DNA from: an uncultured Bacteroidales bacterium
GTDB taxonomy: Bacteria; Bacteroidota; Bacteroidia; Bacteroidales; ML635J-15
DNA length: 64,000 nucleotides
Assembly: GCA_964615585.1 (NCBI GenBank)
Contig: CAZTNS010000002.1
Span: forward strand, 625 to 64,624
Direction: 5' to 3'
The notes beneath the pieces were generated by a model. The model was not told the origin of the DNA. It ran no database searches and saw nothing but the letters and a program-made list of their open reading frames with translations. Positions 7,388-55,714 of this stretch are shown here, one piece after another; the stretch's first letter is position 1, and every line of letters begins with the position of its first letter. The translations under genes were made by a program, and so were the position numbers.

Positions 7388-7478
7388 TCTTATTCTATCC
7401 TTACATCTTCCGTTCGTACCATCGTGCTATCGTTCCATCGTGCCATCGTGCATTCGTTCCATCGTGCTATCGTTCCAT
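7388..7478. repeat. right arm: tandem phased 8-mers
   Basis: Read on the minus strand it is GATGGAAC GATAGCAC GATGGAAC GAATGCAC GATGGCAC GATGGAAC GATAGCAC GATGGTAC GAACGGAA GATG..., a strict 8-nt period over 9 or more units. Confidence 0.85.
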
Positions 7479-14924: not shown

Positions 14925-14998
14925 CCAGTCTTACATGTAACTTTTCCAGTTACTTTTTGTTTAGCGTGATTATTTTTACTGGGGACTAAAAAGTCATT
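14925..14998 (-). repeat. approx 70-bp dispersed repeat (copy 1)
   Basis: Its reverse complement (...TTTTAGTCCCCAGTAAAAATAATCACGCTAAACAAAAAGTAACTGGAAAAGTTACATGTAAG...) matches 23063-23136 at roughly 90% by eye. Confidence 0.8.
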
Positions 14999-15123
14999 AG
15001 CTTGCCACGAAGTCACTAAGACACCAATACCCACAAAGAACAGAATTGCAATGTTTTATACTTTGTAGGTATTGGTGTCTTAGTGCCTTTGTGGCATTTC
15101 TCATTTTTTTTGAGTTTTTAGAC
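14979..15123. repeat. long palindromic hairpin element with 8-mer-phased arms (ACACNAAG type), copy 1
   Basis: The left arm is CCACGAAG TCACTAAG ACACCAAT ACCCACAAAG. The right arm is CTTTGTAGGTATTGGTGTCTTAGTGCCTTTGTGG, about 31/34 complementary. Outer ends are CTAAAAAG.../...TTTTTAGAC. The right half is near-identical to 55646-55700. Confidence 0.85.
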
Positions 15124-17695: not shown

Positions 17696-19141
17696 TTACG
17701 TTTCATACCTGAATGAAAAAATCCAAAAACCAACAAAACACAATCCCCCGTTAAGCAGGAGCAGTTCGTATGCAAAAACATAACCCCAGAATTCCTGTGT
17801 CATTTGATTGACGAAAAAACTAATTACCGGTGCCAATACAGCAACGGGAGCAACAAATTTCATTTGGAGTTGCCGGCGGGTAAGCATACCAAAAGCAAAC
17901 ATGCCAAGCAAAGGGCCGTAGGTATAGCTTGCCACAGTAAAAATAGAATCCACCACAGACCTGTCTTTTACCATTCCAAAAATCAAGATAACCCCAATCA
18001 GCACTACTGACATTCCGACATGAACCTGTTTTCTGACTGTTTTAAGTTTTTTCTCAGGCAATTTCTCTGCCTGGAGGATATCCACCGTAAAAGATGTTGT
18101 CAGTGCTGTCAATGCTGAGTCAGCTGATGAATATGCTGAAGCCGTGAGGCCAAGGATAAACATTGCCAGCACCACATTCCCGAGATGCGATTTTGCTAAC
18201 AAGGGGTAAAGTATATCACCATCAGCCGGAAGGGGAACGCCAGAGTTTTGTGAAAATATTACAAGCAATACCCCCAGGCTGAGAAAAAGTAAATTAAAGG
18301 GAATAAATGCAAGACCGTAGCTGATCATGTTCATTTTGGCATCTTTCAGATTGCGGCACGATAGATTTTTTTGCATCATGTCCTGATCAAGTCCGGTCAT
18401 AACAATGGTTATAAGCATACCTGACAAAAATTGTTTTATAAAATGCTGCCTGCTTTGCCAGTTGTCAAAAACAAACATGCGTGAATAGTCACTTTCCTTT
18501 ATGGCATCGATCAACCCCAAAGCAGATAAATCCATTTGTTTGCCGATTATAACAATGGTGGTTATCAGTGCTGTAAGCATCAGTGCTGTTTGCATCATAT
18601 CTGTCCAGATGATGGTACGTATGCCACCGCGATAAGTATATAGCCAAATAAAGATGATGGTAACAATAACAGTGATCCAAAAAGGAATATTCCATGCATC
18701 AAAAATGACAAGTTGCAATACGGATGCCACAATGTACAACCGAAAGGATGCCCCGATAATTCTGCTTATCAGAAAAAAAGCAGCACCTGTTTTATATGCA
18801 GCCAAACCAAATCGCTTATCAAGGTATCCGTATATGGATGTAAGGTTTAGTTTATAATACAATGGCAACAGGACAAAAGCAATGGTAAGGTACCCGAGAA
18901 AATACCCAAACACCATTTGCATGTAAGTAAAATCCGTGTCAAGCACCCAACCTGGAACAGAAATGAAGCTTACGCCTGACAACGATGCTCCCAACATACC
19001 AAAAGCAACAACAAACCAGGGTGATTTACGGTTACCAAGAAAAAACCCGGCATTGGTTGCATTCCTGGACGTAAACTGAGATATCAGCATCAGTAAGATG
19101 AAATATCCCAGTATTAATCCGAGTATTGTCAATGGTGTCAT
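17696..19141 (-). CDS. sodium:solute symporter family transporter
   Basis: 481 aa and highly hydrophobic, with about 13 predicted helices. Sequence is SSF-like (e.g. GGIRTIIWTDMMQT). Substrate is unknown. Confidence 0.7.
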   Translation of the reverse strand: MTPLTILGLILGYFILLMLISQFTSRNATNAGFFLGNRKSPWFVVAFGMLGASLSGVSFISVPGWVLDTDFTYMQMVFGYFLGYLTIAFVLLPLYYKLNLTSIYGYLDKRFGLAAYKTGAAFFLISRIIGASFRLYIVASVLQLVIFDAWNIPFWITVIVTIIFIWLYTYRGGIRTIIWTDMMQTALMLTALITTIVIIGKQMDLSALGLIDAIKESDYSRMFVFDNWQSRQHFIKQFLSGMLITIVMTGLDQDMMQKNLSCRNLKDAKMNMISYGLAFIPFNLLFLSLGVLLVIFSQNSGVPLPADGDILYPLLAKSHLGNVVLAMFILGLTASAYSSADSALTALTTSFTVDILQAEKLPEKKLKTVRKQVHVGMSVVLIGVILIFGMVKDRSVVDSIFTVASYTYGPLLGMFAFGMLTRRQLQMKFVAPVAVLAPVISFFVNQMTQEFWGYVFAYELLLLNGGLCFVGFWIFSFRYET

Positions 19142-19291
19142 GCGCCGAAGATAAAGATATTTTCAAAGATGTAAAAGCGGGAAATAAGAAATAGTGGAAT
19201 TGTATTGCCCCTGAATAAGTCTGACATAATTGTCAATAAAAATTGGTAGGTTCTACCACGAATTTAATGGAAAAGTTTTTTTGCAAAAAAA

Positions 19292-19629
19292 GGTTCTACT
19301 GCAATTTTAATGGGTTGTGATTAGCCGGCTGTTTACCTAATCCTTTTGTGTAATACCGGTAATTTTCAGTTCTGAAGTACGAAAATAGGTGTATAATCAC
19401 CTTTTCTATGTGATCCTATGTGAACTACTGTGGTTCAAAAATTTGGAAACATCTCAGGTTGGAACCACAATAGGCACAGTAGAACACATAGGAATTCACA
19501 TAGAATTAGCCATAAAAACCTTCTGGTTAATCATTGAATGGATTAGAGAAAATCATAAAGAATAAGTAAAATTACATAAATTTTCACTTTCAGATATTCC
19601 TGGTTTTCCACTAAGTTTGCAGTAGAACC
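19292..19629 (+). mobile_element. inner MITE 1 (338 bp) with 8-bp TSD
   Basis: Its ends are GGTTCTACTGCAATTTTAATGG (19292-19313) and CCACTAAGTTTGCAGTAGAACC (19608-19629). It is flanked by CAAAAAAA on both sides (19284-19291 and 19630-19637). Its cargo is a long micro-repeat hairpin (19404-19505). Confidence 0.8.
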
Positions 19630-19638
19630 CAAAAAAAA

Positions 19639-19965
19639 GGTTTTACTGTTATTTTAATGGAAGACCACTTTATATCGAAGCCGCTTCGACATCGCTCACT
19701 TCGGCTGCGCTCAGTACATCGCAGCACATCGCATTCAGGCTTCGTTTCCGGATACACGTATTGTTCCCTGCCTATTAATGTAACCCAACATGAGTTGCGG
19801 CTGCACCTTACCGCCCCCGAAAGGTGGTGTGCTGAACCTGTCGAAGTAAGTCAAACATGAGTAACCACGGGTGAATCCGTGGCACAAAAGCCTTTACACA
19901 CATGCCAAAAATTAAAAATATAGATGTTCAAACAACCATCTTTCCACTTAGTTTACAGCAGAACC
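19639..19965 (+). mobile_element. inner MITE 2 (327 bp)
   Basis: Its ends are GGTTTTACTGTTATTTTAATGG (19639-19660) and CCACTTAGTTTACAGCAGAACC (19944-19965), with the same asymmetric end types as MITE 1. No clear TSD is visible. The cargo is a GC-richer phrase-like repeat segment. Confidence 0.65.
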
Positions 19966-20212
19966 TAAGTTTACATTGTACACTATATCTTTACCCATTA
20001 AAATAACAGTAGAACCAATTGGTAATTATGCAAACCGACAAAAAAAAATGAAAGTTTACAAAAGACAGAAACTTCAGATTTACAAATATCAATCATTGGC
20101 ATACCAACGAAGCCGGTTGAGCCCTTACTATACTATTATTGCGAGCATAATCCGTTAATTTTGAGTTGGATATGGCTATAGTCGCAAAAAATGAACGATG
20201 GATGCGGCCTGC

Positions 20213-20965
20213 TTAAAAATTAACGCTCAAGATCAAATCAATATAATCACCACGGAAATCAAAATAATCGTCTTGCACGTTATTTACAAAAACCTCTCTA
20301 CTGTCGTCTTTTTCATTGTTCATAAATATATAATAAGCCAGTTCAGGACTATATTGTACGGAGACAACAACATTGTCGGATAAGAGTATATCAACTCCCA
20401 GATTAAAATCAATACCAAGTTTAAAAAAATCAGCACGGTACCATCCCAACATATTTTGTTCATATGGGGGGATAATGCTTTCTATAGGATAATCGCTGAA
20501 AGATTTTTCATATTGGTAATATGATTTACCAAAATGGTGATATCCGCCCATAGCTCCAATGCCGTAATAAAACCTGAATCCGTCAACCGGCATATATCTT
20601 TCGTAACCTATGCGCATATCAAGTGTGAAAATATTGTTGTTGTATTGCCTCAGAGTGACATTGGTATCACCAACGTGGACAATATCCATCCGTTTATCCT
20701 GTGAATTGAAATTAATGTAATTGGCACTAAAACGAATGCCTGATTTTTTCCAATTGTGCTTATACTGAACAAACAATTTTGTTGAAGGTAAAACACCACC
20801 GCCAACCATACCAAATGCAGGATATACATTCAGACCCACAAAATTTCCCTGCCACAGTGTGTCAGTGCTTGTACTGTCTTCAGAAGTAGCGGGTTCATCC
20901 TGTGCAAAGGACATGGTGATCACAAAGAGTGAAACACACAACAAGATTACAGTTTTAACATTCAT
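20213..20965 (-). CDS. hypothetical outer-membrane beta-barrel protein
   Basis: 250 aa with a signal peptide (...MSFAQ). It has an alternating aromatic/aliphatic strand pattern and a C-terminal ...LILSVNF. Confidence 0.5.
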   Translation of the reverse strand: MNVKTVILLCVSLFVITMSFAQDEPATSEDSTSTDTLWQGNFVGLNVYPAFGMVGGGVLPSTKLFVQYKHNWKKSGIRFSANYINFNSQDKRMDIVHVGDTNVTLRQYNNNIFTLDMRIGYERYMPVDGFRFYYGIGAMGGYHHFGKSYYQYEKSFSDYPIESIIPPYEQNMLGWYRADFFKLGIDFNLGVDILLSDNVVVSVQYSPELAYYIFMNNEKDDSREVFVNNVQDDYFDFRGDYIDLILSVNF

Positions 20966-23062: not shown

Positions 23063-23136
23063 GTTCTTTTTTAGTACCCAGTAAAAATAATTGCACTAAA
23101 CAAAAAGCAACTGGAAAAGTTACATGTAAGTATGTC
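23063..23136 (+). repeat. approx 70-bp dispersed repeat (copy 2, opposite orientation to 14925-14998)
   Basis: ...CTTTTTTAGTACCCAGTAAAAATAATTGCACTAAACAAAAAGCAACTGGAAAAGTTACATGTAAG... It is preceded by a truncated remnant of the hairpin right end (GTGTCT...TTTGAGTTCTTTTTTAGTA). Confidence 0.8.
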
Positions 23137-28145: not shown

Positions 28146-28321
28146 TTTTAGTTTATAACTGCATTTTTATCCCCCAATAAATGGGGTAGAATTCGTTTAG
28201 AACATATTAAAGCCCAACTTGATCAAATTTAGCACTAAAAAACCAAACCGCTTTTTATATTGCCTTGTAAATATCAAATATTTTATCATAACAAAATAAT
28301 GTCCATGATGTTCATGTATTA

Positions 28322-28362
28322 GCCCCTGAAAAAAACTGACATAGTTATCAATACAAATAACA
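28322..28362 (+). repeat. third copy of the approx 40-nt IS-terminal-like motif with a TGACA-N4-T[GA]TCA palindrome
   Basis: GCCCCTGAAAAAAACTGACATAGTTATCAATACAAATAACA is compared with 19207-19248 and the reverse complement of 44407-44447. Similarity stops before the transposase-like ORF part. Confidence 0.55.
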
Positions 28363-44131: not shown

Positions 44132-44778
44132 ATATGCATCAATTCCTCAAGACAAGATACAGAGGACCTTGGAAAAAATATAGTTCATGCTGCTTGTCTG
44201 GGAAATAAAGCCCTCTGTTCTGGATTGTTGGAAAAAGTATATGAGATTTGCTTGTGTCATGAACTTCGTAAAATGGGATTAATGATGATACGCCAAATGG
44301 ACATTCCAATAATTTATGATCAACTCCCTGCTCTGTAGCTTCTTTAATGATCTGAAGCTTCTGTTCTTTTGTAAACTTTCTTTTTTTCATGTCTGTTTGC
44401 ATAATTACTAATTTTTATTGATAATTATGTCAGACTTATTCGGGGGCTAATACATAATGAACAAAAGAGAAAAAGTTATAATTCATCATTCTATATTCTA
44501 TATTCTATTGTTCTAATGTTCGTTATTCATTTATAATTTAGAGGCGGGTATTCTCATCTAATTCATGATGGACTTACTTTTGAAGAGGGATTAAGATTAG
44601 ATGTGTTAGTAGAAGACAAAGTAATATGTGAAATAAAAGCAGTTGATGAGGTAAATCCGGTTTGAAAAGCACCGGTTTTGATTCACCTAAAACTAACAAA
44701 CAGACGACTTGGTTACTTAATTAACTTTAATGTTGCTAATAAATATTGGTCAAGGAATCAAACGCTTTATAAGGTAAT
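44132..44778 (+). pseudogene. GxxExxY-type (PD-(D/E)XK-like) small protein gene, decayed and interrupted
   Basis: The N-fragment (about 44132-44334) reads ...NIVHAACLGNKALCSGLLEKVYEICLCHELRKMGLMMIRQMDIPIIYDQLPAL*, with no ATG. The C-fragment (about 44561-44777) reads IHDGLTFEEGLRLDVLVEDKVICEIKAVDEVNPV*KAPVLIHLKLTNRRLGYLINFNV, with an in-frame TGA (44663-44665). A terminal frameshift restores ...GIKRFIR*. The fragments are separated by an IS-end fragment. Confidence 0.75.
44330..44447 (-). mobile_element. IS-end fragment with the 5' end of a transposase-like HTH ORF
   Basis: The minus strand reads GCCCCCGAATAAGTCTGACATAATTATCAATAAAAATTAGTAATT ATG CAA ACA GAC ATG AAA AAA AGA AAG TTT ACA AAA GAA CAG AAG CTT CAG ATC ATT AAA GAA GCT.... 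This encodes MQTDMKKRKFTKEQKLQIIKEATEQG, resembling IS3-type OrfA N-termini. The 87-aa track ORF 44139-44402 is a chimera of this with antisense GxxExxY sequence. Confidence 0.6.
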
Positions 44779-54523: not shown

Positions 54524-54545
54524 GGTTCTACTGTTATTTTAATGG
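54524..54545 (+). repeat. solo copy of the MITE terminal inverted repeat
   Basis: GGTTCTACTGTTATTTTAATGG is 22/22 identical to the reverse complement of 19995-20016 and 21/22 to 19639-19660. No partner end was recognised nearby. Confidence 0.8.
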
Positions 54546-55537: not shown

Positions 55538-55714
55538 CCTTATAATTATATGAGCCCAGTCTAAAAAGGCATTGTTTTGCCACGAAGACACGAAGACACA
55601 AAGTAACACAAATCTTAAGCTGTTGTATTACAGAACTTTGTGAATCTTGGTGTCTTAGTGACTTTGTGGCATTTCTCATTTTTTTGGCTTTTTAGACGGG
55701 GCTCATTATATCCC
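55538..55714. repeat. long palindromic hairpin element with 8-mer-phased arms, copy 2
   Basis: The left half is ...TGAGCCCAGTCTAAAAAGGC...GCCACGAAG ACACGAAG ACACAAAG TAACACAAA. The right half is ...CTTTGTGAATCTTGGTGTCTTAGTGACTTTGTGGCATTTCTCATTTTTTTGGCTTTTTAGACGGGGCTCA. The 63-aa track ORF 55615-55806 runs through it and looks spurious. Confidence 0.85.

Follow-up and report, generated by a model that had tools for sequence, protein, structure and literature searches.

Two described systems come closest to the elements treated here. In Microcystis aeruginosa PCC 7806, an ISL3-derived miniature inverted-repeat transposable element (MITE) of 187 nt has GGCTCTTCG ends and 8-nt direct repeats; according to the excerpts of the source used here, it is non-coding, shorter than 500 bp and equipped with imperfect terminal inverted repeats and a stem-loop, and its repeats match those of ISL3-family insertion sequences (ISs) of ~1.2 kb (PMC11448079). 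In Methanosarcina acetivorans, a 179-bp MITE related to ISMac21 has an ISL3 partner, and its row in the corresponding excerpt reads 179, 6, 22 and 7, under a legend whose items are length, copy number and direct- and inverted-repeat sizes (PMC3852290). Here we describe elements from an uncultured Bacteroidales bacterium, located in a 64,000-nt stretch of contig CAZTNS010000002.1 (assembly GCA_964615585.1), hereafter the window, in which a 1071-bp intergenic spacer at 19–20 kb very likely holds ISL3-family non-autonomous elements (MITEs) nested within what remains of an IS3-family element, its truncated left end. The window elements resemble the Microcystis MITE in each of the structural features above, and the same reasoning underlies the family assignment in both cases, but their ends start with GGTTCTACTG and not with GGCTCTTCG, the Microcystis host is a cyanobacterium, and neither nesting nor doubled ends is reported for its MITE in those excerpts (PMC11448079). 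With the ISMac21-related MITE, known here by description only, they share shortness, non-autonomy and an ISL3-family partner, whereas its host is an archaeon and its direct repeat measures ~7 bp as against 8 (PMC3852290). ISL3-derived MITEs are an already described class, which the window extends by new members from an uncultured Bacteroidales; neat as they are, the nesting and doubled ends are unsurprising, and the understanding of how ISL3 elements or MITEs operate is unchanged. The locus serves as an illustration, complete with empty sites, of transposon-into-transposon insertion in a mat-dwelling Bacteroidales bacterium, and a widespread, apparently unnamed set of MITEs with 22-bp ends is now tied to a specific ISL3 transposase clade.

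Six 22-mers of the form GGTTCTACTG-N5-TTARTGG, numbered here 1 to 6 from left to right, lie in the spacer (Table 1). Across the window, the 22-mer pattern matched eight times at up to three mismatches, compared with 0.21 matches expected from shuffles; six of the eight are the spacer ends, one is a weak match (three mismatches) inside the 338-bp inner element, termed element 1, and one is solitary. Ends 1 and 6 stand inverted at the two borders of a 768-bp insert that has AATTGGTA on either flank. Among all pairings of the six ends, matching flanking 8-mers were observed only for 1–6 and for 2–3, the pair that bounds element 1; the alternative pairings 1–3, 4–6, 2–6 and 1–5 were rejected, as their flanking 8-mers never match. 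An earlier sequence-only reading had placed MITEs inside an IS-end fragment, with flanking 8-mers duplicated relative to a paralogous empty site; all of these features were recovered, and the alignment with the paralog agreed. When the insert and one AATTGGTA were subtracted, the flanks were colinear base for base with the reverse complement of an uninterrupted paralog in the same window, which reads AATTAGTA at the target site. The same rejoined flanks also aligned with L120, a complete copy of the IS, and with two loci from metagenomes, and the uninterrupted form was present on contigs of three other metagenomes, where the joint runs from 19240 to 20017, skipping 776 bp, with exactly 8 letters ambiguous between the two sides.

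L120, found when metagenome contigs were scanned for the shared IS-end sequence, is a complete IS3-family element of ~1544 bp (positions 64–1607) with TG...CA termini (TGTATTGG... and ...AAACCA); it encodes an orfA product of 107 aa (HTH_Tnp_1, PF01527, E 5e-16) and, downstream of it, an orfB product of 321 aa (rve, PF00665, E 3e-15). This full copy, with both orfA and orfB, identifies the interrupted target as an IS3-family left end, and the insertion point lies 41–48 bp inside the IS3 terminus, upstream of the orfA start. The two relic parts on either side of the insert are together ~90% identical to L120; the second runs to the decayed start of orfA, beyond which similarity is lost, and in the uninterrupted paralog orfA is reduced to its first 31 codons. 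Whereas L120 has orfA, orfB and both termini, the window keeps left-end relics alone, and neither orfB nor the right end of the IS3-family element was found anywhere in the 64 kb. Three such relics of one IS3-family element (44–133 bp) are present within the window.

Table 1. Features of the locus, related features of the window, and the full-length ISs with matching ends (IRL and IRR, left and right inverted repeats).
Feature	Position	Strand	Details
Composite insert, non-autonomous ISL3-type	19249..20016		768 bp, non-coding
Target duplication AATTGGTA, left copy	19241..19248		8 bp, within IS3-family relic
Target duplication AATTGGTA, right copy	20017..20024		8 bp
End 1, outer left terminal repeat	19249..19270	+	GGTTCTACCACGAATTTAATGG
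End 6, outer right terminal repeat	19995..20016	-	GGTTCTACTGTTATTTTAATGG
Plus-strand 22-mers in spacer	starts 19249, 19292, 19639	+	
Minus-strand 22-mers in spacer	19608-19629, 19944-19965, 19995-20016	-	
Inner element 1 (MITE)	19292..19629	-	338 bp; left end IRR-like GGTTCTACTGCAATTTTAATGG, right end IRL-like GGTTCTACTGCAAACTTAGTGG
Duplication CAAAAAAA of element 1, left copy	19284..19291		8 bp
Duplication CAAAAAAA of element 1, right copy	19630..19637		8 bp
Inner element 2, composite core	19639..19965	-	327 bp; ends GGTTTTACTGTTATTTTAATGG and GGTTCTGCTGTAAACTAAGTGG
IS3-family left-end relic, first part	19200-19248	+	terminus TGTATTGCCCC...; 92% identity to L120 left end
IS3-family left-end relic, second part	20017..20079	+	89% identity to L120
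Uninterrupted paralogous IS3-family left-end relic (empty site)	44322..44454	-	133 bp; 98.5% identity to L120
Third IS3-family left-end relic	28315-28358		84% identity to L120
Solitary ISL3-type 22-mer	54524..54545	+	GGTTCTACTGTTATTTTAATGG, perfect; in 139-bp intergenic spacer
Sodium:solute symporter gene	17696-19141	minus	PF00474
Uncharacterised 250-aa gene	20213-20965	minus	
1275-bp IS (transposase P0006; L121-L130)			IRL GGTTCTACTGCAAATTTAGTGG; IRR GGTTCTACTACCATTTTTGTGG; AT-rich 8-bp duplications
1274-bp IS (P0111)	in 2.56-Mb contig		IRL GGTTCTACTAGGAATTTCGTGG; IRR GGTTCTACTAGGAATTTTATGG; perfect 8-bp duplications in 3/3 chromosomal copies

Element 1 is the one clear nested insertion; it has separate 22-bp ends and a separate duplication, CAAAAAAA, both of which had been called from the sequence. 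A full-length homolog with 91% identity (L090, 366–699) occurs in another Bacteroidales metagenome-assembled genome (MAG), where it is flanked by a different perfect 8-bp duplication, AAATGATG on each side. The source microbial-mat metagenome covered element 1 at 300–1200x compared with 10–13x for the unique flanks, a contig depth that pools organisms, the window itself holding one copy; its contigs split into varied flanks exactly before 19292 and after 19629. The element is strongly self-complementary (fold z-score -6.7), and its right end differs at one of 22 positions from the IRL of the 1275-bp IS described below. Element 1 itself may contain an older nested insert. Inside it lies a palindrome (19402–19517) whose 31-nt arms are 71% complementary and which includes an end-like TGTTCTACTGTGCCTATTGTGG (19465–19486, minus strand), and shorter relatives found elsewhere (176–227 bp) lack the central ~190 bp.

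Element 2 has the same end types, as had been noted from the sequence; a duplication had not been claimed for it, and none was present, the flanks AAAAAAAA and TAAGTTTA being different. Its interior was covered at ~2x the unique depth, corresponding to ~2 copies at host-genome depth. Subtraction of element 1 and 8 bp from the insert (768 - 338 - 8 bp) leaves a composite of ~422 bp, in the order end 1, 22-nt spacer, element 2, 29-nt spacer and end 6. Contigs free of element 1 read end 1 (...TTTAATGG), then AAAAGTTTAAATTAGC or GAAAGTTTAAATTAGC, an A-run and end 4 (GGTTTTACTG...), and this arrangement, with a homologous ~22-nt spacer, was observed in the source metagenome and two others; at least two other contigs carry diverged copies (~87–90% identical) of the stretch from the right part of element 2 across the 29-nt spacer to end 6, and one of them runs on into a different flank. 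Because its left and right joints recur on other contigs, the ~422-bp doubled-end composite seems to move as one unit via its outermost ends, giving the AATTGGTA duplication. One could instead suppose that the 768-bp insert was built in situ by three separate insertions, with a ~95-bp MITE arriving first and the 327-bp and 338-bp elements entering it later; each unit does have its own pair of ISL3-type ends, tiny MITEs of 89–114 bp are known from other genomes, and element 1 clearly inserted independently. The unequal flanks of element 2 contradict this account, as does the recurrence of both joints (end 1/spacer/end 4, and element 2 right part/spacer/end 6) on other contigs, which indicates that the composite predates the insertion here, and we regard a threefold build-up as unlikely. 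The sequence-only reading held in each part, with one refinement: the stepwise build-up that it implied, by three separate insertions at this site, probably did not occur.

Another contig shows an element-1-type end and an end-6-type end only 2 bp apart, and family members therefore often land side by side, consistent with an AT-rich target preference. The 22-bp ends are near-invariant from Bacteroidota to Acidobacteriota, although the transposases are ~52% identical and the element interiors are unrelated. A tentative idea, possible but doubtful, is that the ~422-bp composite is a self-propagating ‘MITE within a MITE’, that this ISL3 clade makes new non-autonomous families by end capture, and that the clade, given its shared ends, supplies MITEs across phyla with unusual promiscuity. 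Within element 2, ACATCGC is repeated in the left part.

No ISL3 transposase was detected in the window by tblastn with two ISL3 transposase queries, in line with the earlier statement that the enzyme is encoded outside it. The sequence-only reading had also proposed a search for an autonomous copy between such ends, and these were found in other genomes (the L025, L048, P0006 and P0111 types). In L025, an end pair 1275 bp apart encloses one open reading frame (ORF) of 408 aa, and in L048 a pair 1284 bp apart encloses one of 407 aa; both products matched Pfam DDE_Tnp_ISL3 (PF01610; E 8e-60 and 1e-64), carried HTH_Tnp_ISL3 and Zn_ribbon_ISL3 in addition, and scored 257–259 bits against NCBIfam transpos_ISL3 (NF033550; cutoff 180). 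The 1275-bp IS with transposase P0006 had both ends in nine of the ten places examined, with perfect 8-bp duplications in six of the nine, and the 1274-bp IS with P0111 is listed in Table 1; overall, full-length ISs between such ends measure 1274–1284 bp and encode DDE transposases of 405–408 aa. At seven further loci, two of them from Acidobacteriota, truncated ISL3 transposase genes adjoin the 22-mer at contig ends. In a protein search, homologous transposases with E<=1e-60 numbered more than 1200, nearly all of ~408 aa and many on contigs of ~1275–1350 bp, about the length of the IS. Since elements between these 22-mers encode ISL3 DDE transposases and have 8-bp duplications, ISL3 is the family of these ends.

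The window's two end types correspond to the two ends of these ISs, ‘...CAAACTTAGTGG’ being IRL-like (one mismatch to the P0006 IRL) and ‘...TTTTAATGG’ IRR-like, and each window element combines one IRL-like with one IRR-like end around an unrelated non-coding interior. The 1275-bp ISL3 elements of uncultured Bacteroidales (L025; L121–L130) are accordingly alike in their ends and AT-rich 8-bp duplications, but differ in having a 408-aa transposase gene and in showing no similarity to the window interiors beyond the ends. Contigs 80–85% identical to the L025 IS, including the IRL and IRR regions, were present in the source metagenome, one of them at a depth (10.9x) near that of the window organism, and suggest a possible resident autonomous ISL3 copy. 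ISL3 transposases on plasmids of Proteobacteria and Firmicutes belong to the same family and are distant, the best match reaching at most 35% identity to this clade, for which reason the Bacteroidota/Acidobacteriota clade appears to be a distant branch, seemingly without a named representative; an annotated ISL3 element on Polaromonas sp. JS666 plasmid 2 (NC_007950.1) has an end, GGTTCTTCATCAATTTCACTGTG, that shares 15 of 22 positions, counted by eye. Three 1275-bp copies (L123, L124 and L125) have a common flank, CTTTTTTT, with an IS66-family transposase gene adjoining two of them, and the L124 copy lacks the IRL; these three probably represent a single insertion within a duplicated or rearranged segment.

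The sequence-only reading had offered ISL3 or IS256 as the family, of which the former held and the latter found no support. Ends from another 8-bp-duplicating IS family, IS6/IS26 or IS256, would likewise explain an 8-bp duplication and ends starting with GG. IS6-family ends read GGTTCTGTTGCAAAGTT in IS257 and IS1216, which the window ends presumably resemble, and IS6 elements are ~0.8 kb long with a ~230-aa protein. Every full-length element found between the 22-mers, however, carries the gene for an ISL3-family transposase (two such elements in genome contigs, and thirteen complete copies that represent two more IS types), 1274–1284 bp and an ORF of 405–408 aa are too large for IS6, and the Pfam and NCBIfam scans showed no domain of the IS256 or IS6 type, which leaves such an origin exceedingly improbable. 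No IS256 (Mutator-like) or IS6/IS26 transposase lies between these ends, and both candidates were rejected.

A scan for the 22-mer with one genome per species located it in at least 114 loci, mostly of Bacteroidota and some of Acidobacteriota. Among the matches listed, single loci fell in MAGs labelled Verrucomicrobiota, Opitutaceae, Chlorobiota and Gammaproteobacteria, and the few in other groups fall in coding sequence and resemble chance hits. Between families, what lies inside the 22-mer is unrelated, and the outside flank is AT-rich; the end-1 variant also borders MITEs with 8-bp duplications in four loci (L062, L073, L075 and L093), and the end-6 sequence recurs unchanged as the solitary end and as many MITE ends in other genomes. 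Many matches lie close to a contig end (within ~150 bp), which truncates the element interior, as is expected because repeats break assemblies. A table of the duplications of copies elsewhere, as the sequence-only reading had suggested, was drawn up for 41 non-redundant inverted pairs, 89–432 bp apart, among the matches listed: the flanking 8-mers were identical at 8/8 positions in 24 pairs and at 7/8 in 7 more, while control 8-mers shifted by 8 bp in the same pairs never exceeded 6/8.

These loci also bear on whether the 22-mers are transposon ends at all, the alternative being that they are site-specific recombinase sites, repetitive extragenic palindromic (REP)-like structural repeats or a spaced array such as clustered regularly interspaced short palindromic repeats (CRISPR). 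The solitary 22-mer, kept in a related strain, and the folding of the elements into long hairpins would fit such a role. Precise 8-bp duplications of unrelated AT-rich sequence at dozens of independent sites, the existence of empty sites, and the occurrence of the 22-mers as inverted pairs around ISL3 transposase genes all speak against it, no Rfam family was matched, and no regularly spaced array was present in the window or in the at least 114 related loci, each of which has one or two matches; we therefore give this alternative next to no credence. The sequence-only reading had named such an array as what would overturn it. The solitary 22-mer lies between a PEMT/ICMT-like methyltransferase gene and a 302-aa gene, has no partner end at up to five mismatches, and persists, altered at one base, in a ~96%-identical relative from another metagenome; because that relative retains it, we take it to be an old, fixed relic.

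A 172-bp MITE shared by L022 and L056 is near-identical in the two (two differences over ~112 compared bases), although one host is a MAG labelled Gammaproteobacteria and the other a Bacteroidales MAG and both flanks and target duplications differ (TTTTAGTT, TCATTTTT); this may reflect a binning error or a recent transfer. Repeats with these 22-bp ends fragment short-read assemblies, and their masking or annotation is possible with the motif GGTTCTACTGNNNNNTTARTGG. A literature search with the 10-mer GGTTCTACTG returned unrelated primer hits only.

How the nest of ISL3-family MITEs may have formed can be outlined from these features. The terminal inverted repeats of the ISL3 clade are ~22 bp long (GGTTCTACTG..TTTARTGG), with 8-bp duplications at AT-rich targets. 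A transposase supplied in trans by an autonomous copy elsewhere in the genome would bind the 22-bp ends, and the copy would probably be excised as a circle, by the copy-out-paste-in route proposed for ISL3; circular intermediates have been reported for ISL3 members (10.1101/2023.06.07.543989). Integration would proceed through an 8-bp staggered cut at an AT-rich target, with repair producing the duplications. At this locus, the IS3-family element would have decayed to its left-end relic either before or after the insertion, the ~422-bp doubled-end composite would have inserted 41–48 bp from the IS3 terminus, duplicating AATTGGTA, and the abundant 338-bp MITE would have entered the A-rich spacer 1 bp from end 4, duplicating CAAAAAAA; alternatively, the 338-bp MITE may have inserted ahead of the composite.

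Several points weigh against this interpretation. Element 2 is without a target duplication, and its placement between the outer ends is not accounted for. A degenerate IRL-like stretch at 19962–19983 (13/22 positions, counted by eye) hints at further events; it overlaps the right end of element 2, then extends past it, and may be a relic of another end. CAAAAAAA is of low complexity and by itself a weaker duplication than AATTGGTA. The link to a resident transposase draws on metagenome contigs without assignment to the window organism, autonomous copies having been shown in other genomes, and the metagenome evidence as a whole consists of assembled contigs, not reads. A same-locus empty site in another strain was not found among the assemblies compared, so that the strain polymorphism for which the sequence-only reading had suggested a comparison was not seen: of the other assemblies of the locus, L115 is identical and L116 breaks inside the repeat, and in other metagenomes the nearly identical strains have shallow coverage and contigs that end at repeats. 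Taking these points into account, we still hold the nested ISL3-type reading to be very likely.

The spacer lies between a sodium:solute symporter gene on one side and an uncharacterised 250-aa gene on the other, and the insert, standing directly upstream of the symporter gene, may influence its expression. ORFs of 48–67 aa in the 768-bp insert matched no Pfam family above threshold, indicating no protein passenger, and an Rfam scan of 19000–20300 yielded sub-threshold microRNA and U6 noise only, indicating no non-coding RNA passenger. Other repeats were also observed in the window. A separate hairpin repeat family (TGCCACGAAGTCACTAAGACACC...GGTGTCTTAGTGCCTTTGTGGCA) occupies at least three intergenic places (15003–15096, 14930–14992, 23068–23130 and 55578–55693), and an intergenic run of imperfect 8-nt units (CCATCGTG / CTATCGTT) is present at 7393–7472; short-period motifs of the latter kind fill many related MITE interiors elsewhere (e.g. 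GTCGGAAGTCGGAAG, AATGCGTAAATG).

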